Assembly: GCA_043816965.1 (NCBI GenBank)
Contig: JBDRHK010000090.1
Span: 1 to 14,028 of the forward strand
Reading direction: 5' to 3'
DNA from: Candidatus Iainarchaeum sp.
GTDB lineage: Archaea > Iainarchaeota > Iainarchaeia > Iainarchaeales > JAFCCJ01
DNA: 14,028 nucleotides
Both the position numbers and the translations under genes were made by a program. Numbering within the stretch: the first letter of the stretch is position 1; every line of letters starts with the position of its first letter. Below, one piece after another: positions 616-11,356 of the stretch. The notes under the pieces were generated by a model. It made no database searches. It saw nothing but the letters and a program-made list of their open reading frames with translations, and was not told the origin of the DNA.

Positions 616-2274
616 ATGGACGGCACAAGGGAACATGTATTGGCTGAGGATATAGCAAAGGACTTCAAGGAGCATTCTGTAGCGGAATTTTTCAAGAAGA
701 ACAAGCAGATGCTGGGGCTTGTCGGAAAGATAAGGACACTTACCACCATAATTCACGAATACGTTACCAATTCATTGGATGCCTGTGAGGAGGCGAAGAT
801 CCTTCCTGATATTGAAATTACGCTTGATGAGCTTGGCAGCGAATATTATGAGCTTACTGTCAAGGACAATGGCCCAGGTTTAACTGAGAAAACTGTTGGC
901 AAGGCATTTGGGCAATTGCTAGCCGGAACCAAATTCCACAGGATGATGCAGAGCAGAGGGCAACAAGGAATAGGTGCAGCCGGCTGCACAATGTACAGCC
1001 AGATGACTACTGGAAAGTCTGTGAGAGTTATTACTGGAAGCGGAAATGGGAAGGCATTCAGTGTTGAGATTAACATCGACCCAAAGGCAAATCAGGCAAA
1101 ACTTTCCAATCTTGTTGAACTGAACAAGCCCTTCAAGGGCGTTGCAGTAAAGGCAAAATTCAAGGGAGTTAAATATGTAAATTCAGAGCAGGCCCCTTTG
1201 GAGTATCTCAGGAGGACTGCGATAGCAAACCCTCATGTGAGGATTAGTTTTAGGGACCCGGCAAAAGAAACAACTATTTTTGAGAGAACCACCAAAACCA
1301 TTCCATCAAAGCCGAGTGAGATGAAGCCCCATCCTAAAGGCGCGACTGTTGATGAAATTATTACTGTTTCAAAATCCACAGACGCGAGAAAGATTAATTC
1401 ATTCCTGAAAAACGAGTTCGACAGGATGGGGGATAAGGCTATTTCCGAGATTACGAAAAAGGTTTCGTTTGATTTAAACAAGGATCCCAAAAAACTCACA
1501 TGGGAGGAATCTGAGGAAATTGTAAAGGCATTTAAGACCATTGATTTCATTGCCCCGAGGACTGATGGCCTTAGGCCTATTGGGGAGGACAGGATTTCAA
1601 AATCCCTGAAAAGCATTGTAGAGCCGGAATTCCTTTCAGTAATAACAAGGAAACCAAACGTTTATTCCGGCGGGTTCCCTTTCCAGACAGAGGTTGCGAT
1701 AGCATATGGCGGGAAGGCAGGAAGGGGTTCAGGCATAAAAACTGATGAGGGTGTTGAGCAGAGGAAGATCGAGGTAATGAGATTTGCAAACAAGGTGCCT
1801 TTGCTCTTTGACGGTGGGGGCTGTGCTATAACAAAGGCTGTCCAGTCCATTGACTGGAAAAGGTATGGTGTCAAGGATATGGAAACCGCACCCATCACAA
1901 TATTTGTGAATTTGATTTCTGTTTATGTCCCTTACACAAGCGCTGGCAAGCAGGCGATTAGTGAGGAACCGGAGATAGTTGAGGACATAAGGCTTGCGCT
2001 AATGGATTCGGGGAGAAGGACAGGGAGATATATTATCGGCAAGAGAAAGCTTCAGGAGAAGAAGATGAAGAGGGAGACATTCCTAAAATACATTCCTGAG
2101 ATTGCAATGGCGCTTAACAAAATTACAAAAGAGAGTGAAGCGATGTTAAAGGAAAAACTCGAGAAACTGGTTATTGCAAAACTCAAACTGGAAGAAAAGG
2201 AAGAGGAAGACCTGCCCGAGGATATTGAGGAAGCGATTAGGGTTACAAAGCTTGATGGAAGGGGGAATAAGTAA
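616..2274 (+). CDS. top6B: DNA topoisomerase VI subunit B
   Basis: 552 aa with GHKL ATPase motifs HEYVTNSLDA, DNGPG and SRGQQGIG, plus transducer motifs RFANKVPLL and VPYTSAGKQ. AGGTGG SD at 606-611. Confidence 0.97.
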   Translation: MDGTREHVLAEDIAKDFKEHSVAEFFKKNKQMLGLVGKIRTLTTIIHEYVTNSLDACEEAKILPDIEITLDELGSEYYELTVKDNGPGLTEKTVGKAFGQLLAGTKFHRMMQSRGQQGIGAAGCTMYSQMTTGKSVRVITGSGNGKAFSVEINIDPKANQAKLSNLVELNKPFKGVAVKAKFKGVKYVNSEQAPLEYLRRTAIANPHVRISFRDPAKETTIFERTTKTIPSKPSEMKPHPKGATVDEIITVSKSTDARKINSFLKNEFDRMGDKAISEITKKVSFDLNKDPKKLTWEESEEIVKAFKTIDFIAPRTDGLRPIGEDRISKSLKSIVEPEFLSVITRKPNVYSGGFPFQTEVAIAYGGKAGRGSGIKTDEGVEQRKIEVMRFANKVPLLFDGGGCAITKAVQSIDWKRYGVKDMETAPITIFVNLISVYVPYTSAGKQAISEEPEIVEDIRLALMDSGRRTGRYIIGKRKLQEKKMKRETFLKYIPEIAMALNKITKESEAMLKEKLEKLVIAKLKLEEKEEEDLPEDIEEAIRVTKLDGRGNK

Positions 2275-4934
2275 TGGCAAAGAAAGCAAATAAGATTCCT
2301 GCAAAGAAGGGCAAGGCTGCAGAAAAAACAACTGCAAATAAAACACAGAAATCACGCACAGGCAAGAAGGACACCCCGAAAGAGATAGCAAAGCATATTG
2401 AGCTTATTGGGAGAGGGGTCGTTGCCGAAATAAAGAAGGGGCAGGATCCCAGCTTTGAGACCCAGATGAGGGGGCGGAGCAATGTTGAGTTTGATGCCAA
2501 GTCAAAGTTTCTTTCCCTCGGGGACAAGATGACTACCAGGAATTTCCTGAACATTGGCCATGCGAGGAAGTTTATGCAGACAATGATGGTTGCTGCAAAA
2601 ACAAATGATTATCTGAAAGAGAACAAGACAGCGGCAATCAGGGAAATTTACTATGAGCTTAAGCACACTTTAGGGAAAACCAAGGAAAATACCTTTGATG
2701 ACCAGACAGAATCAGATTCTGTGATAGTTGATTTGGAACATTCGGTTGATACAATCAGGGAGAAGCTTAATTTACATGCAAACCCAAAGGGAACCCTTTA
2801 CGGAGAGGTAACTCTCAGGGACAAGATGCACAATAACGACACATTCAACTGCGCCAAATTGGGAAGGGGCGGCTGGAGCGTAATGAGCAGGATTGAGCCT
2901 GAGGAAATCCAGATTGTTAAGGCCAATGCGGATTATGTGCTTATGATTGAGACAGAGGCAATGTATGAAAGGCTTGTCGAGGAGGGTTTCCCGAAAAAAA
3001 ACAGGGCGCTTCTTGTAAGCACTGGGGGGCAGGCGGCAAGGGGGACAAGGAGGCTTATCCAGAGACTTCATGCCGAGGCAAATCTTCCGGTTTATTGTTT
3101 TAGCGTGGATGGGGAAGAAACAGTGGTAATTGAGGAAGATGGCCTGATTAAAAATGTGCAGTTGAAGGAACTTATGAACGGCAAAGAAGTACTGAAAATT
3201 GATGGGGTCATAGAGAATGAACGGGCCACAATCAACGCAAAATCAATGTGTTTTGATGATAAAAAAACCAGCTTCGGCCAGATAAATCAGGTAATAAGGC
3301 ACCCTATTGTTGAAGACCTTTATGAGGTTAAAACAGATTTGGGTTACAGTGTAAAGGCAACAAGGTCACACAGCCTCATTGTTTACGATTCAAAAAAACA
3401 GGAATTTGTTGAGAAAACACCTTTAGAGGTTGACATGAACAATGATTTTGCGATTATCAGCCTTGACGTTCCAAACAATGAAAGCCTGAAAAGGATTGAT
3501 TTGGCAGAATTTGCAATCGACCATCCAAACGCCGAAATTGGAAAAGACGAAATAACCAATAAAAAAAATAAGGTTTCAATTCCGCGCTTTATTGAGAAAG
3601 AAAAACTAGGTGACTTTTGCAGGCTGCTCGGTTATTACGCAGCTGAGGGCAATCTAGATGATTATAGAATCGTTTTTAGTTTCAACAAAAACGAGGAAGA
3701 TTACATCCAAGATGTTTTTAATATATCGGAATCACTTTTTAATATTGAAGCAAAAGCACGCGATCCTCACAGTACAGAAACACAAGTGATGATTCATAAT
3801 ACTATTCTGTCCAAGATATTCAGAAACATTGCCTCAACAGGTTCGGCAAATAAAAGAGTCCCAAATATTGTTTTCAATGTACCGACAAAATCGAAGAAGG
3901 AATTTCTGACGGGATATTTTAGAGGCGATGGCAGGGTAGATTTCAAGAAAGAGAAAAGTTCGGTTGAACTATGGGCGAAAACAGTAAGTAAGAAACTGGC
4001 CTACGATTTGGTTCTGCTTATCTCGCAGATTGGCGCCAATGCAACAATTCAGTACCCGAAAGAAAGCAGCGCCGAGCATGAAGTTGAAATGACAACTGCA
4101 TCAGGGATTCAAAAAACTAAAATTATTGCAAGACTAACGCCTTACCTCATAAGCATTTCAAATAAAGAGGCATTGTTAAATCTTAAGGAGCTCGTGTCAG
4201 AACTCAATCCTCTCGCACTGAAACATATTGAAAATAGTTACATAAAAACACCAAAAATTGACAGCCTTCCAAGAGAATTTGTTGAAAGATTCAGGCAAAA
4301 TTTCAGGGAAGAATTTAGGGGGGATCTTGAGAAAAAATTGCCTCCCGCAACATTCCAGTGGCCCAGAATTTCTAAGAAAAAATTGCGTGAATTGCTCAAG
4401 GGCAAGGAATTAAGCAGAGAGCTACAAACTCTGAAGGAGTTTGCCAACAATAAAACAACTTTTGCAAGAATTAGCGGAATAGAAAAAGTGGAGCCGAAGG
4501 ACAAATACGTTTATGATATTGAAATGGCAGGAACCCACAGGTTCTTTGCAAACTTTATGTGTGTCCACAACACAGACGGTGACCCTTATGGATGGTATAT
4601 TTATAGTGTTGTAAAGCAGGGGAGTATGGCACTTGCCGCACATTCTGAATTTATGGCTGTTCCAAGCGCAAAATTCATCGGCATGACTTTGGATGATGTT
4701 GAAACCTATGGCCTGGAAAATGTCACTGAGAAAATGAAGGAAGGGGACATTAAAAGGGCAAAGGAAATGATTGAATATCCCTGGTTCCAGAATGAGCCCT
4801 GGCAGAGGCAGCTGAAAAAAGCCCTTGTCCAGAAAATCAGGATAGAGCAGCAGGCCTTGGCTAATAAATCACTGGACTTTGTTGCAAAGGAATATCTCCC
4901 TAAAAAGATTAAGGCAAAGGACTTCCTACCCTAA
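2274..4934 (+). CDS. top6A: DNA topoisomerase VI subunit A precursor containing an intein (886 aa precursor, 396 aa after splicing)
   Basis: Catalytic Tyr motif IREIYY, TFDDQTESD, TOPRIM glutamate region IETEAMYERL, TGGQAARGTRR and C-terminal RIEQQAL. Removing the insert restores LPVYCF|TDGDPYGWYI. Overlaps the top6B stop by 1 nt (TAATG). Confidence 0.96.
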   Translation: MAKKANKIPAKKGKAAEKTTANKTQKSRTGKKDTPKEIAKHIELIGRGVVAEIKKGQDPSFETQMRGRSNVEFDAKSKFLSLGDKMTTRNFLNIGHARKFMQTMMVAAKTNDYLKENKTAAIREIYYELKHTLGKTKENTFDDQTESDSVIVDLEHSVDTIREKLNLHANPKGTLYGEVTLRDKMHNNDTFNCAKLGRGGWSVMSRIEPEEIQIVKANADYVLMIETEAMYERLVEEGFPKKNRALLVSTGGQAARGTRRLIQRLHAEANLPVYCFSVDGEETVVIEEDGLIKNVQLKELMNGKEVLKIDGVIENERATINAKSMCFDDKKTSFGQINQVIRHPIVEDLYEVKTDLGYSVKATRSHSLIVYDSKKQEFVEKTPLEVDMNNDFAIISLDVPNNESLKRIDLAEFAIDHPNAEIGKDEITNKKNKVSIPRFIEKEKLGDFCRLLGYYAAEGNLDDYRIVFSFNKNEEDYIQDVFNISESLFNIEAKARDPHSTETQVMIHNTILSKIFRNIASTGSANKRVPNIVFNVPTKSKKEFLTGYFRGDGRVDFKKEKSSVELWAKTVSKKLAYDLVLLISQIGANATIQYPKESSAEHEVEMTTASGIQKTKIIARLTPYLISISNKEALLNLKELVSELNPLALKHIENSYIKTPKIDSLPREFVERFRQNFREEFRGDLEKKLPPATFQWPRISKKKLRELLKGKELSRELQTLKEFANNKTTFARISGIEKVEPKDKYVYDIEMAGTHRFFANFMCVHNTDGDPYGWYIYSVVKQGSMALAAHSEFMAVPSAKFIGMTLDDVETYGLENVTEKMKEGDIKRAKEMIEYPWFQNEPWQRQLKKALVQKIRIEQQALANKSLDFVAKEYLPKKIKAKDFLP
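3102..4571 (+). mobile_element. Intein with LAGLIDADG (DOD) homing endonuclease in Top6A, Ser277-Asn766, +1 residue Thr
   Basis: Block A SVDGEETVVI, block B KATRSHSL (TxxH), LAGLIDADG motifs LLGYYAAEG and FLTGYFRGDG, block F YVYDIEMAGTHRFFAN and block G VHN|T. In-frame insert of 1470 nt. Confidence 0.95.
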
Positions 4935-7954: not shown

Positions 7955-8603
7955 CCAATGAAATTATTTTTTCTACATCAATCTCTTCCAATGATTCAAC
8001 CATCAAATCAGCCCTTGAAAAATCCTGCCCCTTCGAGAATTTTCCGGGAACTGCGATTGCCTTCATTTCCGCATTTTTTGCTGACTCAACCCCTAATTGG
8101 GTGTCTTCCACAGCAACACATTCATTAGGAGCAATTCCTAATTTCTCCGCAGTTTTCAGGTAAACCGCAGGGGAGGGCTTATGTTCAGTGACATCATGAA
8201 TGTCCACCATTACGGAAAATTTATCTGTTAGGTTGAATTTATCGGTAATTAAGTGTATGTTCTTCTTTGAGTTGGCTGATGCAATTGCCAGGATTATTCC
8301 CATTTCCTCAAGGGAATTGATTAATTCTTTCACGCCTGGATTTAGGGGAAGCTCCCCAGCAATCTTTTTTGTCGCCGCAATATGTGTATTATTATGGAAC
8401 TCATCATAATCCCCATCGAGCCCGTATTTTTCTTTTAGTATTTGAAATTTATTGCTGAAGGTTTTTCCAACAATGTTTTCATAATCCTCTTCAGTTAATT
8501 CAATATTCCTTTTTCCCATAAATTCCGCAATGCTCCCATGCCACATAGAATCGGTGTCTGCAATAACCCCGTCGAAATCGAAAATCACCGCCTTAATTGC
8601 CAT
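7947..8603 (-). CDS. HAD-superfamily hydrolase subfamily IA (CbbY/beta-phosphoglucomutase-like phosphatase)
   Basis: Motif I IFDFDGVIAD, motif II ASAN, motif III KPSP and motif IV VEDT..GVESA. Start placed at ATG 8603 (MAIKAVIFDFDG) rather than 8627. Confidence 0.9.
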   Translation of the reverse strand: MAIKAVIFDFDGVIADTDSMWHGSIAEFMGKRNIELTEEDYENIVGKTFSNKFQILKEKYGLDGDYDEFHNNTHIAATKKIAGELPLNPGVKELINSLEEMGIILAIASANSKKNIHLITDKFNLTDKFSVMVDIHDVTEHKPSPAVYLKTAEKLGIAPNECVAVEDTQLGVESAKNAEMKAIAVPGKFSKGQDFSRADLMVESLEEIDVEKIISLGE

Positions 8604-9498
8604 AAACCATCCCTCTCTTTTCCTCAAGCAGTTCTTTAGGGTAGAAAATCAGCGGCCTGAAGACAGGCAGTTCTGCACCAATCCTTTTCAGTTCCTTTCT
8701 CAATTTGGTTTCCCCTGAAACCAGTGCCTGAACATTTATATCTGGCTTTTCAACCAGCTGTCGCAATTTTTGCAGCGGCGTGAAAAGAAAACTCCTGAAA
8801 GAGTTCCATCTCACCAATTTTTCAACTTCCTTCTCAATTTCTTTGGATTCTTTCTCAACAACCGGGAAGATGTTGCAGCCCCTGCGCATCATTAAAAAAG
8901 CCGCGACCAAATCATCCTTTTTACCTGTAAAAAGCATAGCGACATTTCCCTCAACCCCGAGTGGCAAACCTTTTGGGCCGGGAATCTCCTCCAAATAGAT
9001 GAACATATCCTTTCCCCTAATTTCAACATTAACTTCCTTGTCTGGATTGGAAAGATTTACTTTCAGGCCGGGAAATTCCCCCATAATTTCCGAACCCAAT
9101 TTTTCCCCCAATTCCTGATTGGTCAACTCCTTATTGTCAACAACCCTTGGCCTTACTGCAAAACTATCACCCTCTTTCAAAAATCCTTTGCAGACCTCGG
9201 TCCCCTTTTCCAGAATTTTTTTCAGGTTAACGCCGTGGACTGATTCTGCCTTTGCAAAGGAATGGATTCCAAAAACAAGGGGTAAAAGGGCGTGAATTTC
9301 ATCCAGATTTTTCATTTTTTCAGGATAGAGGTAAAGCCTTCCCCCTTTCTTAACTATTCTGCTTCCGGCAAGCTTGTTTGCGCGGAAAACAGATTTCATG
9401 TTTGAGACTAATTTGTCCATGAAATATTTCCTCACAAAATGGCTTTTCAGGGAGATTTCCGAGGAAGTCTTGATCAGGAGGCAATTTGGGGAAAGCAT
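8593..9498 (-). CDS. ThiI-like THUMP-domain protein with a degenerate PP-loop
   Basis: N-terminal LLIKTSSEISLKS, THUMP segments SFAVRPR and LKVNLSNPDKEVNVEIR, and GPKGLPLGVEG. The SGGxDS motif reads TGKKDD, followed by VAAFLMMRRG. The second Met (9498) fits the ThiI N-terminus; 9516 is the alternative start. Confidence 0.85.
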   Translation of the reverse strand: MLSPNCLLIKTSSEISLKSHFVRKYFMDKLVSNMKSVFRANKLAGSRIVKKGGRLYLYPEKMKNLDEIHALLPLVFGIHSFAKAESVHGVNLKKILEKGTEVCKGFLKEGDSFAVRPRVVDNKELTNQELGEKLGSEIMGEFPGLKVNLSNPDKEVNVEIRGKDMFIYLEEIPGPKGLPLGVEGNVAMLFTGKKDDLVAAFLMMRRGCNIFPVVEKESKEIEKEVEKLVRWNSFRSFLFTPLQKLRQLVEKPDINVQALVSGETKLRKELKRIGAELPVFRPLIFYPKELLEEKRGMVYGN

Positions 9499-9504
9499 AA
9501 ACAA

Positions 9505-9529
9505 TTTTAAAGGCATAAGGGTTAAAATA
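9505..9529. promoter_or_regulatory. Candidate divergent archaeal TATA boxes
   Basis: TTTTAAAG (+, 9505-9512) lies about 30 nt upstream of the leader ATG at 9542. TATTTTAA (-, 9529-9522) lies about 24 nt upstream of the thiI-like ATG at 9498. Assigned on motif and spacing only. Confidence 0.4.
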
Positions 9530-9541
9530 TTACTGAGTTAA

Positions 9542-9604
9542 ATGAGTGGTCAAAACAACAAAAAGAAATGCACTTGCAACTGCTGTTGCTGCTGTTGTTG
9601 TTAG
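9542..9604 (+). CDS. Poly-cysteine leader peptide MSGQNNKKKCTCNCCCCCCC (putative attenuator of cysK-cysE)
   Basis: Reads ATG AGT GGT CAA AAC AAC AAA AAG AAA TGC ACT TGC AAC TGC TGT TGC TGC TGT TGT TGT TAG. Contains 9 Cys codons, 7 of them consecutive, mixing TGC and TGT. Ends 65 nt upstream of cysK. Confidence 0.88.
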   Translation: MSGQNNKKKCTCNCCCCCCC

Positions 9605-9665
9605 AGACCTCTCTCAAAAACTCTTTTAACCGGTTTTTTGGGGGATTACAAAACTAGAGAGATGG
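9603..9665 (+). promoter_or_regulatory. Putative attenuator region with mutually exclusive pairings
   Basis: TCTCTCAAAAA (9610-9620) can pair with TTTTTGGGGGA (9635-9645). CCTCTCTC (9608-9615) can instead pair with GAGAGATGG (9657-9665), which occupies the cysK RBS position. T6 tract at 9634-9639. Confidence 0.6.
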
Positions 9666-9669
9666 CTAT

Positions 9670-10584
9670 ATGAAGTTCAGAAACATCCTGGAAACTGTGG
9701 GAAACACCCCTATGGTGAGATTGAACAGGATTTCCGGAAAAGGTGCTGCGGAGATTTACGCTAAACTCGAGATGTTCAATCCAGGGGGAAGTGTAAAGGA
9801 CAGGATAGGCATAGGCATGATTGAGGATGCCGAGAGAAATGGCCTGCTTGGGAAAGAATCGGTGATTGTGGAGCCCACATCAGGAAATACGGGAATCGGC
9901 CTGGCAATTGCCGCTTCGGTGAAAGGCTACAGGGTTATTTTTGTGCTGCCGGAAAATTTCAGCATAGAGCGGCAGAAAATATTGAGGGTGTTTGGCGCCG
10001 AACTTGTGCTTACTCCCAAAGAAACAGGAATGGCCGGCGCCGTGGAAAAGGCGGAAGAATTGGTTAAATCTAACAGGAATTATTTCATGCCACAGCAGTT
10101 CAGGAATCCGGCAAATCCAGAAATCCACAGGAAAACCACAGCTAAAGAGATTTTGAAAGATCTCCCTGATTTGGATGTGTTTGTTGCCGGCATCGGGACT
10201 GGGGGAACCCTTACAGGCGTGGGAGAGGTCCTTAAGTCAAAAAATCCAGGAATAAAGGTAGTTGCTGTTGAGCCTGCAGACTCGCCGGTTCTTTCAGGCG
10301 GAAAACCAGGACAACACAAGATACAGGGGATTGGTGCCGGGTTTGTGCCAGAGGTAATGAACCGGGAAATTGTTGACGAAATAATTCAGGTAGGGAATCT
10401 GGAGGCGATAGAAACTGCAAAGCGGCTGGCGAAGGAAGAGGGAATTTTTGCGGGGATTAGCAGCGGGGCGGCGGCATTTGCGGCATTAAAAATTGCGGGA
10501 AAAATAGGGGCAGATAAAAAAATTGTAGTTATTTTGCCCGACACAGGTGAAAGATATTTATCGACAGAACTCGGGGAGGTATAA
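9670..10584 (+). CDS. cysK: Cysteine synthase A (O-acetylserine sulfhydrylase)
   Basis: PLP lysine motif NPGGSVKDRIG, EPTSGNTGIG, QQF.NPAN, GIGTGGT, HKIQGIGAGFVP and PDTGERYLST. Confidence 0.97.
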   Translation: MKFRNILETVGNTPMVRLNRISGKGAAEIYAKLEMFNPGGSVKDRIGIGMIEDAERNGLLGKESVIVEPTSGNTGIGLAIAASVKGYRVIFVLPENFSIERQKILRVFGAELVLTPKETGMAGAVEKAEELVKSNRNYFMPQQFRNPANPEIHRKTTAKEILKDLPDLDVFVAGIGTGGTLTGVGEVLKSKNPGIKVVAVEPADSPVLSGGKPGQHKIQGIGAGFVPEVMNREIVDEIIQVGNLEAIETAKRLAKEEGIFAGISSGAAAFAALKIAGKIGADKKIVVILPDTGERYLSTELGEV

Positions 10585-10586
10585 AA

Positions 10587-11165
10587 ATGGGTTTGATAAA
10601 AACAATCAAGGCAGATATAAAAACATTCAGGGAGAATGACCCTGCGGTTAAAAGCACTCTGGAAATTTTGCTGTGTTACCACACATTCCATGCAATTCTC
10701 ATACACCGCCTTAACCATCCGCTATACAATCTCAATATTCCCATACTCCCCAGGTTTATTTCAATGGTGAACAGGTTTTTCACAGGTGTGGAAATACATC
10801 CCGGGGCAAAGATAGGAGATGGATTTTTCATAGACCATGGTACGGGAACAGTGATAGGAGAAACTGCAAATATAGGAAAGAGCTGTGTTATGTACCAGCA
10901 CGTCACTTTGGGGGGGACGGGAAAGCATACTGGAAAAAGGCATCCTACATTAGGGGAAAATGTTCTTGTGGGGGTTGGCTCAACAATTTTGGGGCCGGTT
11001 AACATTGGGGACAATGCAAAAATCGGGGCAAACACATTCATAATAATGAAGGATGTTCCTGCAAACGCGACAGTTGTTGGGGTGCCTGGAAAAATCGTGA
11101 AAATTAACGGGAGGAAAATAGTGAAGGAACTGAAGAAAACAGTCCTTCCAAATGGTTTTAAATGA
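10587..11165 (+). CDS. cysE: Serine O-acetyltransferase (short EpsC/Bacillus-like form)
   Basis: NDPA, TGVEIHPGAKIG, FIDHGTGTVIGET, VTLGGTGK..GKRHPTLG, hexapeptide repeats and VVGVPGKIV. GGAGGT SD at 10575-10580. Confidence 0.96.
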   Translation: MGLIKTIKADIKTFRENDPAVKSTLEILLCYHTFHAILIHRLNHPLYNLNIPILPRFISMVNRFFTGVEIHPGAKIGDGFFIDHGTGTVIGETANIGKSCVMYQHVTLGGTGKHTGKRHPTLGENVLVGVGSTILGPVNIGDNAKIGANTFIIMKDVPANATVVGVPGKIVKINGRKIVKELKKTVLPNGFK

Positions 11166-11173
11166 TTTCATAG

Positions 11174-11187
11174 GAAAATCTTTAAGT
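11174..11187 (+). promoter_or_regulatory. Candidate BRE/TATA promoter (GAAAATCTTTAAGT) for the tRNA-Cys transcript
   Basis: Purine-rich BRE-like GAAAA followed by TTTAAG (11181-11186). This would put transcription initiation near 11205-11210. Confidence 0.55.
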
Positions 11188-11197
11188 CTCTAGCGAG

Positions 11198-11283
11198 GGC
11201 GAATGGTCGGTTTCGTAGGTTCCCGAAGGGGACTAGGTGAATTCCGTGGGAATTCGCCGTCGTGTCAACTGAGATAGCAGTTG
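11198..11283 (+). ncRNA. Hairpin-rich element upstream of tRNA-Cys (unknown function)
   Basis: Three consecutive stems: TAGGTTCCC-GAA-GGGGACTA (11216-11235), GGTGAATTCC-GTG-GGAATTCGCC (11236-11258) and CAACTG-AGATAG-CAGTTG (11266-11283). An alternative pairing GGCGAAT (11198-11204) with ATTCGCC (11252-11258) is possible. Confidence 0.45.
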
Positions 11284-11284
11284 T

Positions 11285-11356
11285 GCTGAGGTGGCAGAGA
11301 GGCTATGCATCCGCCTGCAGAGCGGAAGATCGGGGGTTCAAATCCCTCCCTCAGCT
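11285..11356 (+). tRNA. tRNA-Cys (anticodon GCA), no intron, CCA not encoded
   Basis: Acceptor stem GCTGAGG/CCTCAGC, D arm GCA-GAGAGGCTA-TGC, anticodon arm TCCGC-CT GCA GA-GCGGA (GCA at 11317-11319) and T arm GGGGG-TTCAAAT-CCCTC. Discriminator U73 is typical of tRNA-Cys. Confidence 0.97.

Follow-up and report, generated by a model that had tools for sequence, protein, structure and literature searches.

A cysteine-codon leader before archaeal cysK and a candidate ribosome-read switch behind its stop codon

Introduction

In a stretch of 14,028 nucleotides of DNA from a MAG of the uncultured archaeon Candidatus Iainarchaeum sp. (hereafter the window), a short open reading frame rich in Cys codons stands immediately before the cysteine synthase gene cysK. 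The arrangement raises the question whether an archaeal ribosome could read such a leader and convey the outcome to the genes behind it. Archaea couple transcription to translation and terminate their transcripts at oligo-U tracts and with the nuclease FttA/aCPSF1, not at hairpin terminators. In the literature that we searched, leader-peptide attenuation was described only for bacteria, and termination controlled by structure was not found for any archaeon. The original prediction for this locus placed mutually exclusive RNA pairings between the leader stop codon and cysK and proposed two possible outputs, conditional termination at a U-tract or translational control through the cysK ribosome-binding site.

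The leader ORF and its gene neighborhood

The leader ORF (9542-9604, forward strand; MSGQNNKKKCTCNCCCCCCC) consists of 20 codons followed by the stop codon TAG at 9602-9604. Nine of the 20 codons encode Cys (9569-71, 9575-77, and 9581-9601), and the last seven of these (9581-9601) are consecutive and immediately precede the stop. The genome was screened for a second leader ORF of this kind and none was present elsewhere. The ORF is kept in G001 and G027, where the changes between TGC and TGT are synonymous. Two other reading frames in the region were considered as well. A poly-Leu frame (ATG 9568 to TAG 9655-57) was rejected, as in G001 it runs into a stop after three codons and in G006 it is without a start; the idea that the G5 run described below serves a concealed ORF (TTG 9638 frame, ending at 9671-73) was dropped as well, with G001 again stopping after three codons.

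A TATA-like box with the sequence TTTTAAA (9505-9511, forward strand) is the putative leader promoter. Because its last base lies 30 nt before the leader ATG, the leader 5′ UTR is predicted from the general archaeal TATA-to-start distance to be very short (0-8 nt), which would make the ORF near-leaderless. The distance from the end of the TATA-like hexamer to the leader ATG is 23-32 nt in all eight leader loci that have enough upstream DNA. The short promoter region is common to the leader and a divergent ThiI/THUMP-like gene (8593-9516, reverse strand; TIGR00342, 122.7 bits, under the cut-off of 264.5), which is probably served by a second AT-rich box at 9522-9532. This neighbor is also present in G001, G027, G105, and G042.

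Downstream of the leader and on the same strand are cysK, encoding cysteine synthase A (9670-10584; TIGR01139, 446.9 bits versus a cut-off of 350.95; PALP domain), and cysE, encoding serine O-acetyltransferase (10587-11165; TIGR01172, 222.4 bits versus a cut-off of 210.65). A tRNA-Cys (GCA) gene (11285-11356, forward strand) follows cysE and is the sole tRNA-Cys gene of the 19 tRNAs detected in the assembly. Such a gene stands after the leader loci in six of nine cases, the same arrangement being found in G001, G027, G006, G105, and G042. The Shine-Dalgarno-like region of cysK (GAGAGAUGG, 9657-9665, forward strand) reads GAGAGGUGA in G001; the 16S rRNA 3′ end was not found in this assembly.

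Across the order, 196 genomes were searched for related leaders. ATG-starting ORFs that end in a Cys run lie upstream of cysK-like genes at 7 of the 30 loci screened. With a relative in G051 that has two Cys codons and a leader before cysE in G027, the total is nine loci in six genera. The N-termini of these leaders differ, and the Cys run adjoins the stop codon in all nine. Between families, the leader region DNA is 76% identical and the neighboring cysE proteins are 62% identical. Searches of the class and phylum (215 genomes) found no leaders beyond the order. In metagenome scans, a pattern made of the leader N-terminus and the Cys run had no matches, and a looser pattern (Cys run, gap, T5G4) returned at least 120 stretches, with no further homologue among the matches listed. 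The matches listed from a contig scan for seven Cys codons plus a stop-like triplet were mostly bacterial coding repeats. When three DNA runs were matched to the region at 80% likeness, coverage was confined to 9741-9845, within a conserved portion of cysK and coming from other organisms, with no coverage of the leader; a search of RNA runs for 8600-11200 listed none. Short BLAST matches in G034, G011, and G055 were discarded as they lie within coding sequence, and so were four matches to a 6-Cys+TGG pattern that lie inside long ORFs in other frames.

We regard the Cys-codon leader as very likely to be a cysteine-sensing device. It probably lets the ribosome gauge the supply of cysteine and adjust the cysteine-synthesis genes of this small-genome archaeon.

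Pairings behind the leader stop codon

The original prediction assigned three partners to the pyrimidine segment that follows the leader stop, and reading of the sequence located all three. Stem (a) is formed by UCUCUCAAAAA (9610-9620) and UUUUUGGGGGA (9635-9645), both on the forward strand, and has 11 uninterrupted pairs, two of which are G-U, with an energy of −8.9 kcal/mol. Its 3′ arm includes a G5 run (9640-9644) and covers U 9635-9639 of a T6 tract (9634-9639, forward strand) that is a putative archaeal termination or pause signal. Pairing (b) is a minor alternative that uses 9608-9615 and has the Shine-Dalgarno-like region of cysK as its 3′ partner (9657-9665), 5-13 nt before the cysK ATG at 9670; it comprises eight pairs and one bulged U (−7.6 kcal/mol). 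Pairing (c), between AGAG at 9603-9606 and CUCU at 9611-9614, has merely four pairs and a 4-nt loop (−2.5 kcal/mol). As had also been predicted, a terminator scan of 9400-9800 detected no hairpin-plus-T-tail terminator at the T6 tract, and the single terminator-like match of that scan lies within the Cys codons.

A fourth partner, absent from the original prediction, was found in the leader itself. GGUC at 9548-9551 (leader codons 3-4) pairs with GACC at 9606-9609, directly after the stop codon, to give a closing helix on the forward strand. The Asn/Gln/Lys codons (AACAACAA, 9554-9561, forward strand) pair with 9595-9602, which spans the final Cys codons plus the stop's first base, in a helix of eight pairs. 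The leader hairpin composed of these two helices stacks directly on stem (a). In the ensemble the Cys tract pairs with leader codons 5-7; the duplex between the leader 5′ end and the Cys tract was not better than shuffles. When the full transcript was folded, stem (a) had 9.2 expected pairs and pairing (b) had 0.01. In these models pairing (b) is a weak alternative and pairing (c) is negligible, and stem (a) together with the closing helix is likely to be the native fold. A search of the whole window with Rfam cmscan (E ≤ 1) gave no match in 9500-9700.

Comparison with shuffled sequences and relatives

The stems had been expected to stand out from shuffled sequence, and the answer depended on what was compared. 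The fold energy of 9603-9669 is ordinary (z −0.20; 71 of 200 shuffles were as good), and that of 9535-9690 is ordinary as well (z −1.04; 27 of 200), such that the region as a whole equals its shuffles. The uninterrupted 11-bp stem, on the other hand, is rare: stems with 11 or more pairs, at most two G-U pairs, and a loop of 3-20 number 154 in the 1,285,296 bases of the genome that were scanned, or 0.0078 per 65 nt.

The predicted covariation was found in part, in a sample of three sequences from two lineages (G000, G001, and G027). Their alignment contains 23 pairs, with 98.6% of cells paired and three pairs changed on both sides. These values were reached by 20 of 500 shuffles, and slid controls paired 46-64%. 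Two of the four pairs of the closing helix are changed on both sides in G027. The 11 pairs of stem (a) contain one compensatory change and one broken cell, both in G027, and the helix between 9554-9561 and 9595-9602 is paired in 100% of cells with no compensatory changes. Stems common to G000 and G001 carry little weight because the two are close relatives, about 90% identical in this region. Over the wider family, the leader 5′ end pairs with the post-stop segment better than shuffles do in six of nine loci (p ≤ 0.052), with a combined p of 0.0024 when the worst member of each genus is taken.

The U-tract and archaeal termination

Runs of T6-8 accompany the leaders. One is present in eight of the nine leader spacers, and among cysK loci such runs occur at seven of eight that bear a leader versus 2 of 19 without one (Fisher p=0.0003; 0.008 by genus). 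The genome background for T6 or longer runs is 94 of 1107 windows upstream of genes and 138 of 1132 downstream; after genes they are just modestly enriched in this genome (12-14% versus 8.5% upstream). A U4 tract (9624-9627) lies 8 nt upstream of the U6 tract at 9634-9639. The termination factor aCPSF1/FttA is encoded on contig C62 (TIGR03675, 862 bits versus a cut-off of 580.2).

According to the available text of Li et al. (2021, PMC8716108), aCPSF1 binds U-tracts and archaeal U-tract terminators are recognized by 4-7 consecutive U residues, a range that includes the U6 tract. The optimal FttA terminator described with the FttA pre-termination complex structure (PMC11616081, 2024) combines U-rich RNA at −30 to −36 with U at −23. 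By our own count, U 9634-39 and U 9647 would occupy these positions if the RNA 3′ end were at about 9669. The same report, in the text available, poses ribosome gating of FttA-dependent termination as a hypothesis.

Modelled ribosome positions

The ribosome was modelled as a masked footprint of 28 nt with an assumed edge at A site +12. Whichever Cys codon occupied the A site, stem (a) kept 8.4-10.2 expected pairs; at the stop codon 0.5 remained, and this was the sole position from which the modelled ribosome melted it. The unpaired fraction of the U-tract was 0.18 in all stalled states versus 0.47 with the ribosome at the stop. The sharp contrast of the stop with the last Cys codon is sensitive to where the footprint edge was set. 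Similar modelling of G027 gave 0.02-0.06 for stalled ribosomes versus 0.21 at the stop, and in G001 the hiding of the U-tract was weak (0.19 to 0.24). In five other leader genomes (G006, G105, G042, G004, and G051) the U-tract was 0.2-0.7 unpaired at every ribosome position. The predicted loss of stem (a) at the stop and its retention at the Cys codons were thus reproduced, whereas hiding of the U-tract was predicted in G000, G001, and G027 only. The mechanism is therefore not general as modelled. Opening of the Shine-Dalgarno-like region by a stalled ribosome was also considered as the switch and was rejected, as it was inconsistent across the nine loci.

A candidate cysteine attenuator

These results are best explained if the stretch 9603-9669 delivers the output of a cysteine attenuator that the ribosome reads. 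Comparison with relatives gives good support to the general idea of a ribosome-read switch on the Cys-codon leader that operates without a bacterial-type terminator. For its output, our tentative choice on the basis of the models is conditional termination at the U-tract. This output, the first of the two originally proposed, gains from the ribosome-mask modelling, from the association of T6+ runs with leaders, and from the presence of FttA; the restriction of U-tract hiding to three genomes counts against it.

Under conditional termination, stem (a) would bury the G5 run along with five of the six U residues in the T6 tract. With Cys-tRNA plentiful, the ribosome would trail the polymerase to the stop codon and its footprint would lie over the 5′ arm of stem (a), so that the U-tract would emerge single-stranded. 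The transcript could then end by intrinsic oligo-U termination or by the action of aCPSF1/FttA, which needs free U-rich RNA. With Cys-tRNA scarce, the ribosome would pause within the Cys codons before it reached the 5′ arm; stem (a) would form, the U-tract would be hidden, and transcription would proceed into cysK-cysE and perhaps the tRNA-Cys gene. The tRNA-Cys neighbor favors termination over Shine-Dalgarno masking because a tRNA gene is beyond the reach of control by a masked ribosome-binding site. Against this, the tRNA-Cys gene may have a promoter of its own, as a TATA-like box is located about 120 nt upstream of it. In G027, the probable ribosome-binding site of cysE is likewise buried in the equivalent of stem (a), and this would work against expression in the 'on' state. 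The complete proposal is an archaeal ribosome-mediated attenuator in which the position of the ribosome on the poly-Cys tract gates a U-tract helix against oligo-U or FttA/aCPSF1 termination, and which may also balance tRNA-Cys supply with cysteine synthesis, given that leader, cysK/cysE, and tRNA-Cys form a conserved cluster to which the module belongs. In this full form it is possible and somewhat doubtful.

Alternative explanations

The alternative that survives best is translational attenuation of the mycobacterial type, which generalizes the second output of the original prediction. The post-stop segment would pair with the region where ribosomes bind to the following gene, and a ribosome that stalls on the Cys codons at the C-terminus would cover this segment and free the site. 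A precedent is available from mycobacteria, in which, according to the text available, the stalling of ribosomes in a poly-Cys tract blocks structures by which the ribosome-binding site is sequestered (10.1101/834739). Duplexes between the 30 nt after the stop and the 20 nt before the start beat 500 shuffles in five of the nine loci (p ≤ 0.026), with 0.074 in a sixth and a combined p of 0.007 for the worst member per genus. In partition-function folds, three of nine loci exceed at least 96% of shuffles in post-stop-to-SD pairs. The position of the Cys run, next to the stop in every leader, also fits, as do the perfect 8-bp match of pairing (b) to GAGAGGUGA in G001 (by eye) and the G6 run that stem (a) buries in G027, 9 nt before the cysE ATG. 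In the modelled window, placing the A site on the last Cys codons left the Shine-Dalgarno-like region 0.49-0.53 unpaired, versus 0.15 at the stop.

Several results oppose a translational output. In the window itself, stem (a) prevails over pairing (b) in expected pairs and we infer that (a) forms first during transcription; the masking of cysK by pairing (b) as originally drawn is thus not upheld, although, taken across the family, the post-stop segment is enriched in pairing to the ribosome-binding region. The opening upon stalling is small or absent in seven of nine loci. For pairing of the Cys tract with the Shine-Dalgarno-like region, the duplex p value is 0.19 in the window and 0.048 at best (G006), and it is not significant in eight of nine loci. 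Stem (a) of G027 is opened only by a ribosome at or next to the stop codon, which is the wrong polarity unless stalls on the last codon dominate. Moreover, the T-run association and the tRNA-Cys neighbor are left unexplained. Overall, we consider a translational output rather unlikely.

The locus might also contain no switch, with pairings incidental to pyrimidine- and purine-rich low-complexity sequence and an ORF that is a Cys-rich micro-protein or a relic. The ordinary folding z-scores agree with this possibility, as do the four possible purine-rich partners of the pyrimidine segment, which low-complexity sequence would offer, and the near-identity of G000 and G001, which makes their common stems little informative. 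However, leaders occur before cysK or cysE in six genera with variable N-termini and a constant Cys-codon ending, and the leader region has 76% DNA identity between families while the neighboring cysE proteins have 62% identity. The T-run association, the rarity of the 11-bp stem, and the compensatory changes speak against chance, and we judge the absence of a switch improbable.

We find it very improbable that the conserved block 9613-9650 acts as DNA, namely as a second promoter or operator for cysK (cysE in G027) of which the pairings are by-products. A TATA-like hexamer makes up the 'loop' of stem (a) in each of the three relatives (TTTTAA, ATATAA, and ATTTAA), and by our own count the hexamer of G027 ends 24 nt before the cysE ATG, a spacing that matches five leader ORFs. 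In addition, CTCAAAAA and T6G5 are invariant, and an 8-bp palindrome is located at 9628-9635 (AACCGGTT; AATCGATT in G001). The palindrome is missing in G027, however, and G006, G105, and G042 have leaders and T-runs without a TATA-like hexamer in the spacer (by eye). RNA helices preserved by changes on both sides are not predicted for a DNA site, and the conserved Cys-codon ORF would be unexplained.

Stabilization of the operon mRNA by a ribosome that stalls near the 5′ end and blocks 5′-to-3′ decay, with stems and T-run that are not a switch, has the right polarity, would also affect a co-transcribed tRNA, and requires just the features common to all nine loci (a 5′-proximal near-leaderless ORF with Cys codons) where no one structure-based model fits every lineage, but it leaves the T-run association, the compensatory changes, and the Cys run adjoining the stop unexplained and is the account to which we give the least credence.

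Relation to known systems

In the tnaC/Rho system of E. coli, a ribosome held at the extreme end of a short leader governs the termination factor's access to the RNA just behind the stop codon. The conditional termination proposed here is alike in that the position of a ribosome at the leader end would control factor access behind the stop. It differs in the factor and in the cause of stalling: free amino acid stalls release at the stop in tnaC, whereas codon starvation would stall the ribosome before the stop here.

Classical bacterial attenuators such as trp and his, as outlined in 10.1101/834739 and from general knowledge, share with this locus the enrichment of end-product codons and a U-tract before the structural genes; their mutually exclusive pairings, selected by the position of the ribosome, would have a counterpart here according to the models. 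Unlike these attenuators, the present leader has no G+C-rich hairpin with an immediate U-tail, its U-tract is inside a helix, and its regulatory codons adjoin the stop.

The mycobacterial polycysteine leaderless sORF attenuators (Ms5788A, the 'Cys ribulon'; Canestrari et al., 10.1101/834739), as far as the available text describes them, likewise have a short ORF with consecutive Cys codons toward its 3′ end and genes of cysteine metabolism downstream, and they also lack a classical terminator; their very short or absent 5′ UTR and the place of the ORF as first cistron are predicted to recur here, and their use of the ribosome to sense charged tRNA-Cys is proposed here as well. In contrast to them, the present system is archaeal and known from its sequence alone, its Cys tract pairs with the leader's 5′ codons and not with the ribosome-binding site, and its module has a T6-8 tract and a tRNA-Cys gene after it, and the output may be transcriptional. 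The actinobacterial Cys-codon leaders (Seliverstov et al., 2005, PMC1262725) also carry Cys runs near the stop of short ORFs before cys or cbs genes. In the available account they have no conserved terminator hairpin, and Rho factor-dependent termination was suggested. The archaeal locus differs from these bacterial leaders in that the candidate factor is aCPSF1/FttA and that a defined helix would compete for the U-rich site.

With the archaeal aCPSF1/FttA terminators (PMC8716108, PMC11616081) the locus shares a U6 tract with a U4 tract upstream, the encoded factor, and, by our own count, a U spacing in agreement with the published optimum. The known cases, in the literature searched and the text available, are gene-end or intra-operon terminators, for which gating by a ribosome or a competing helix was not reported. 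If the proposal is true, a leader stop codon that lies one ribosome footprint from a U-tract-burying helix would represent bacterial logic rebuilt on archaeal machinery, and would provide a compact model for whether ribosomes gate FttA-dependent termination. The module would then mark small-genome archaea that retain regulated cysteine synthesis, physically linked to tRNA-Cys.

Cysteine-codon leaders precede cysK and cysE

G000, the archaeal genome that contains the window, is small (1.34 Mb in 109 contigs, 86% complete) and encodes aCPSF1. Its leader ORF extends on the forward strand from ATG 9542 to TAG 9602–9604, with the product MSGQNNKKKCTCNCCCCCCC, and is followed on the same strand by cysK (9670–10584; TIGR01139, 446.9 bits, cut-off 350.95), cysE (10587–11165; TIGR01172, 222.4 bits, cut-off 210.65) and tRNA-Cys(GCA) (11285–11356), the one tRNA-Cys among 19 tRNAs called by ARAGORN in the assembly. 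Archaeal TATA boxes lie at a usual distance from the start of transcription. Because a TATA-like TTTTAAA box (9505–9511, forward strand) ends 30 nt before the leader ATG, the leader would be expected to have a 5′ UTR of just a few bases. The leader region gave no Rfam match, and a second Cys-run leader ORF of this type was not found in G000.

At the DNA level the region was searched for in 61 genomes and then in 215, all that were available for the phylum; the only matches were in G001, of the same genus, and in G027, of another family (76% identity over 9494–9653). Pattern searches across the order (196 genomes, 34 of them with a cysK-like gene) added the leader of G006. A short ORF that starts with ATG and closes with a Cys run was present no more than 300 nt upstream of the cysK-like gene at seven of the 30 loci screened (G000, G001, G006, G008, G004, G105 and G042; gene starts are uncertain in G105 and G042, with TTG, and in G008 and G004). 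G051, from the genus of G004, carries a version with two Cys, and in G027 the leader precedes cysE while cysK sits elsewhere without one. The family is conserved at nine loci in six genera, counted over one representative per species, mostly incomplete MAGs, with related genomes not independent. The leaders have 15–24 codons and 2–9 Cys, the Cys run is C-terminal in every one, and the spacers to the gene measure 37–91 nt. A TATA-like hexamer ends 23–32 nt before the leader ATG at all eight loci with enough upstream DNA.

The family is also associated with tRNA-Cys. At six of the nine loci, from four families (G000, G001, G027, G006, G105 and G042), tRNA-Cys(GCA) lies closely downstream of the leader-controlled cysK/cysE genes on the same strand; besides that of the window, these are L303 3090–3161, L003 2437–2509, L324 1089–1159, L306 1380–1450 (minus strand) and L310 2410–2480. 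No same-strand tRNA-Cys follows the leader-bearing genes in G008, G004 and G051. The 119-nt spacer between cysE and tRNA-Cys (11166–11284) has a predicted energy of −39.7 kcal/mol, in a fold with three or four hairpins (z −2.70; 4 of 200 shuffles equally good). A TATA-like TTTTAAAT box overlaps the cysE stop ahead of it, and a similar box lies about 115–125 nt before tRNA-Cys in G001, G027 and G006; the spacer could serve as a long structured leader of the tRNA or encode a small RNA of its own.

Several features adjoin the leader. Upstream, on the opposite strand, is a ThiI/THUMP-like gene, a divergent neighbour kept in G001, G027, G105 and G042. It shares about 45 nt with the leader, including two AT-rich boxes in opposite orientations (9496–9532), and judging by spacing it probably starts at its second Met (complement of 9496–9498) on a leaderless mRNA. 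A poly-Leu frame over the leader was rejected, being broken in G001. Another short frame, opening at TTG 9638 (or at ATG 9662, with three codons), closes with a TGA that overlaps the cysK ATG as ATGA (9638–9673); the TTG 9638 frame is not retained in G001. Farther away, the window holds topoisomerase VI subunit genes, and that for subunit A (2274–4934) contains an intein with a LAGLIDADG endonuclease domain.

The segment after the leader stop has competing partners

The original prediction gave the segment after the leader stop three partners, and all three pairings can be formed: (a) 9610–9620 with 9635–9645, 11 unbroken pairs including two G-U (−8.9 kcal/mol); (b) 9608–9615 with GAGAGAUGG at 9657–9665, eight pairs and one bulge (−7.6 kcal/mol); and (c) AGAG 9603–9606 with CUCU 9611–9614, four pairs (−2.5 kcal/mol). 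Folding of 9603–9669 (z −0.20; 71 of 200 shuffles equally good) and of 9535–9690 (z −1.04; 27 of 200) was not unusual, so at the level of the whole region the outcome is the one named beforehand as counting against a switch. Stem (a) fares better in a more specific test: unbroken stems of at least 11 pairs (at most two G-U, loop 3–20) occur 154 times in 1,285,296 scanned G000 bases, or 0.0078 per 65 nt.

In the full transcript (9542–9690) the ensemble is dominated by three stacked helices: a closing helix (GGUC 9548–9551 with GACC 9606–9609), a leader-internal helix (AACAACAA 9554–9561 with UUGUUGUU 9595–9602) and stem (a), with 9.2 expected pairs. Pairing (b), through which translation of cysK was proposed to be controlled, retains 0.01 expected pairs and drops out in the window; it competes for bases with the other two helices, and the 3′ arm of (b) would be the last to be transcribed. 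When G000, G001 and G027 were aligned, 98.6% of cells were paired over the 23 pairs of the three helices; G027 has a single G-G cell in stem (a). Three pairs have changed on both sides, one of them in stem (a) and the others in the closing helix. These values are matched by 20 of 500 shuffles, and slid controls pair 46–64% of cells. Within the window's subfamily the predicted helices are maintained by compensatory changes; because the alignment holds three sequences from two lineages, the covariation is suggestive support, not proof. An 8-bp palindrome, AACCGGTT (9628–9635), is AATCGATT in G001, with both halves changed, and is lost in G027.

The distant leaders differ in sequence, yet the same pairing theme recurs. 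Duplexes between the first 24 nt of the leader and the 30 nt after its stop scored better than those of 500 dinucleotide shuffles (p: G000 0.02, G001 0.016, G027 0.016, G006 0.259, G105 0.01, G042 0.052, G008 0.531, G004 0.106, G051 0.028; Fisher-combined with the worst member per genus, p=0.0024). Duplexes between these 30 nt and the 20 nt before the downstream start likewise scored better than those of shuffles (p: G000 0.014, G001 0.016, G027 0.355, G006 0.395, G105 0.022, G042 0.024, G008 0.026, G004 0.84, G051 0.074; combined in the same way, p=0.007). The segment just after the stop thus has competing predicted partners on either side in most lineages.

A T-run belongs to the leader module

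Eight of the nine leader spacers contain a run of 6–8 T; G008 has none. Six or more T occur within 100 nt upstream of cysK at 7 of 8 loci with a leader versus 2 of 19 without, even though many of the latter are very A+T-rich (Fisher p 0.0003; 0.008 counted by genera; 27 of 30 cysK loci, G111, G159 and G167 being dropped for cut or split genes). In G000 the background, which rests on crude ORF calls, amounts to 94 of 1107 windows of 65 nt upstream, 138 of 1132 windows of 60 nt downstream and 7% of windows placed at random. The T-run therefore belongs to the leader module.

Similar tracts occur elsewhere. TTTTTGGGGG(A) followed by ATG within 3–10 nt precedes other G000 genes (contigs C22, C40, C46 and C69), and a 24-nt near-copy of 9625–9648 (96% identical) stands before a gene at L139 of G098, with ATTATG at its end in place of the window's ATTACA. 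In this order, a T-run combined with a G-run may be a recurrent ribosome-binding signal.

Ribosome position and the output of the leader

Masked folding used a ribosome footprint from −15 to +12 of the A site, a thermodynamic treatment that ignores kinetics. For A-site positions from Cys10 to Cys20, stem (a) kept 8.4–10.2 expected pairs, against 0.5 at the stop; the G5 run (9640–9644) went from 0.03–0.10 unpaired when stalled to 0.67 at the stop. On the RNA existing when the U-tract has just emerged, the tract was 0.18 unpaired in every stalled state versus 0.47 at the stop in G000, 0.02–0.06 versus 0.21 in G027, and 0.19 versus 0.24 in G001.

We tentatively rank conditional termination at the U-tract first, because it uses the T-run, the sole feature to go with the leader, and its polarity is right. 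It also fits the location of stem (a), whose 5′ arm would lie just beyond a Cys-stalled ribosome and be covered by one at the stop codon. Masked folding agrees with this part of the original prediction; hiding of the U-tract did not generalize, since the tract is 0.2–0.7 unpaired at all ribosome positions in G006, G105, G042, G004 and G051, and this is a main weak point. Termination of this kind is compatible with published properties of the factor: aCPSF1 is described as binding U-tracts via KH domains (PMC8716108), and the FttA terminator as reaching from −1 to −36, where −30 to −36 is U-rich and position −23 is a U (PMC11616081), whose authors hypothesise that ribosome coupling and FttA binding are mutually exclusive. 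By our own count, U 9634–9639 and U 9647 would fit this geometry if the RNA 3′ end lay near 9669; positions −25 to −35 would in that case be taken up by stem (a), putting helix and factor in competition.

Masking of the ribosome-binding site is a doubtful second. The nearest counterpart in the literature is the leaderless poly-Cys short ORF of mycobacteria, in which stalled ribosomes are reported to stop the Cys tract from sequestering the ribosome-binding site, a translational control (10.1101/834739). The archaeal leader has the same sensor, but that defining pairing is absent: in duplex tests, pairing of the Cys tract with the ribosome-binding region was not significant at eight of the nine loci, the window's included. 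The T-run is additional. In the window the SD-like region of cysK was 0.31 unpaired when free, 0.49–0.53 for a ribosome whose A site holds the last Cys codons and 0.15 for one at the stop, an opening on stalling that had no consistent counterpart at the other leader loci.

That there is no switch at all, as the whole-region folding would allow, we consider improbable. Slightly less probable still is an internal promoter or operator, to which the loop of stem (a) (9624–9629) would point, being a TATA-like hexamer in G000, G001 and G027 and ending 24 nt before the cysE ATG in G027. Least probable is that a stalled ribosome stabilises the mRNA.

The window departs from classical attenuators in that, as originally noted, no hairpin-plus-T-tail stands at its T6 tract (9634–9639). 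Terminator-less Cys-codon leaders were predicted in Actinobacteria by Seliverstov et al., who suggested Rho (PMC1262725). A literature search for archaeal leader-peptide attenuation, with subscription journals largely uncovered and absence in print thus unproven, returned bacterial work only. Unlike the window, L311 of G004 has a perfect A/U-rich hairpin right behind the leader stop (its 12-bp stem starts inside the stop codon) with T7 immediately following, which looks like a bacterial-type terminator.

The second leader subfamily (L304 of G008; L311 of G004 and L315 of G051, both minus strand) has an extra short ORF in the 60–90 nt before cysK, with a strong GGAGG-type site, that runs into the cysK coding frame. 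It ends in RCQ in G008 and G004, where cysK has no canonical start codon upstream of its conserved N-terminus; in G051 RCQ is found five codons ahead of the stop. This arrangement may reflect coupling, a frameshift or an unusual start.
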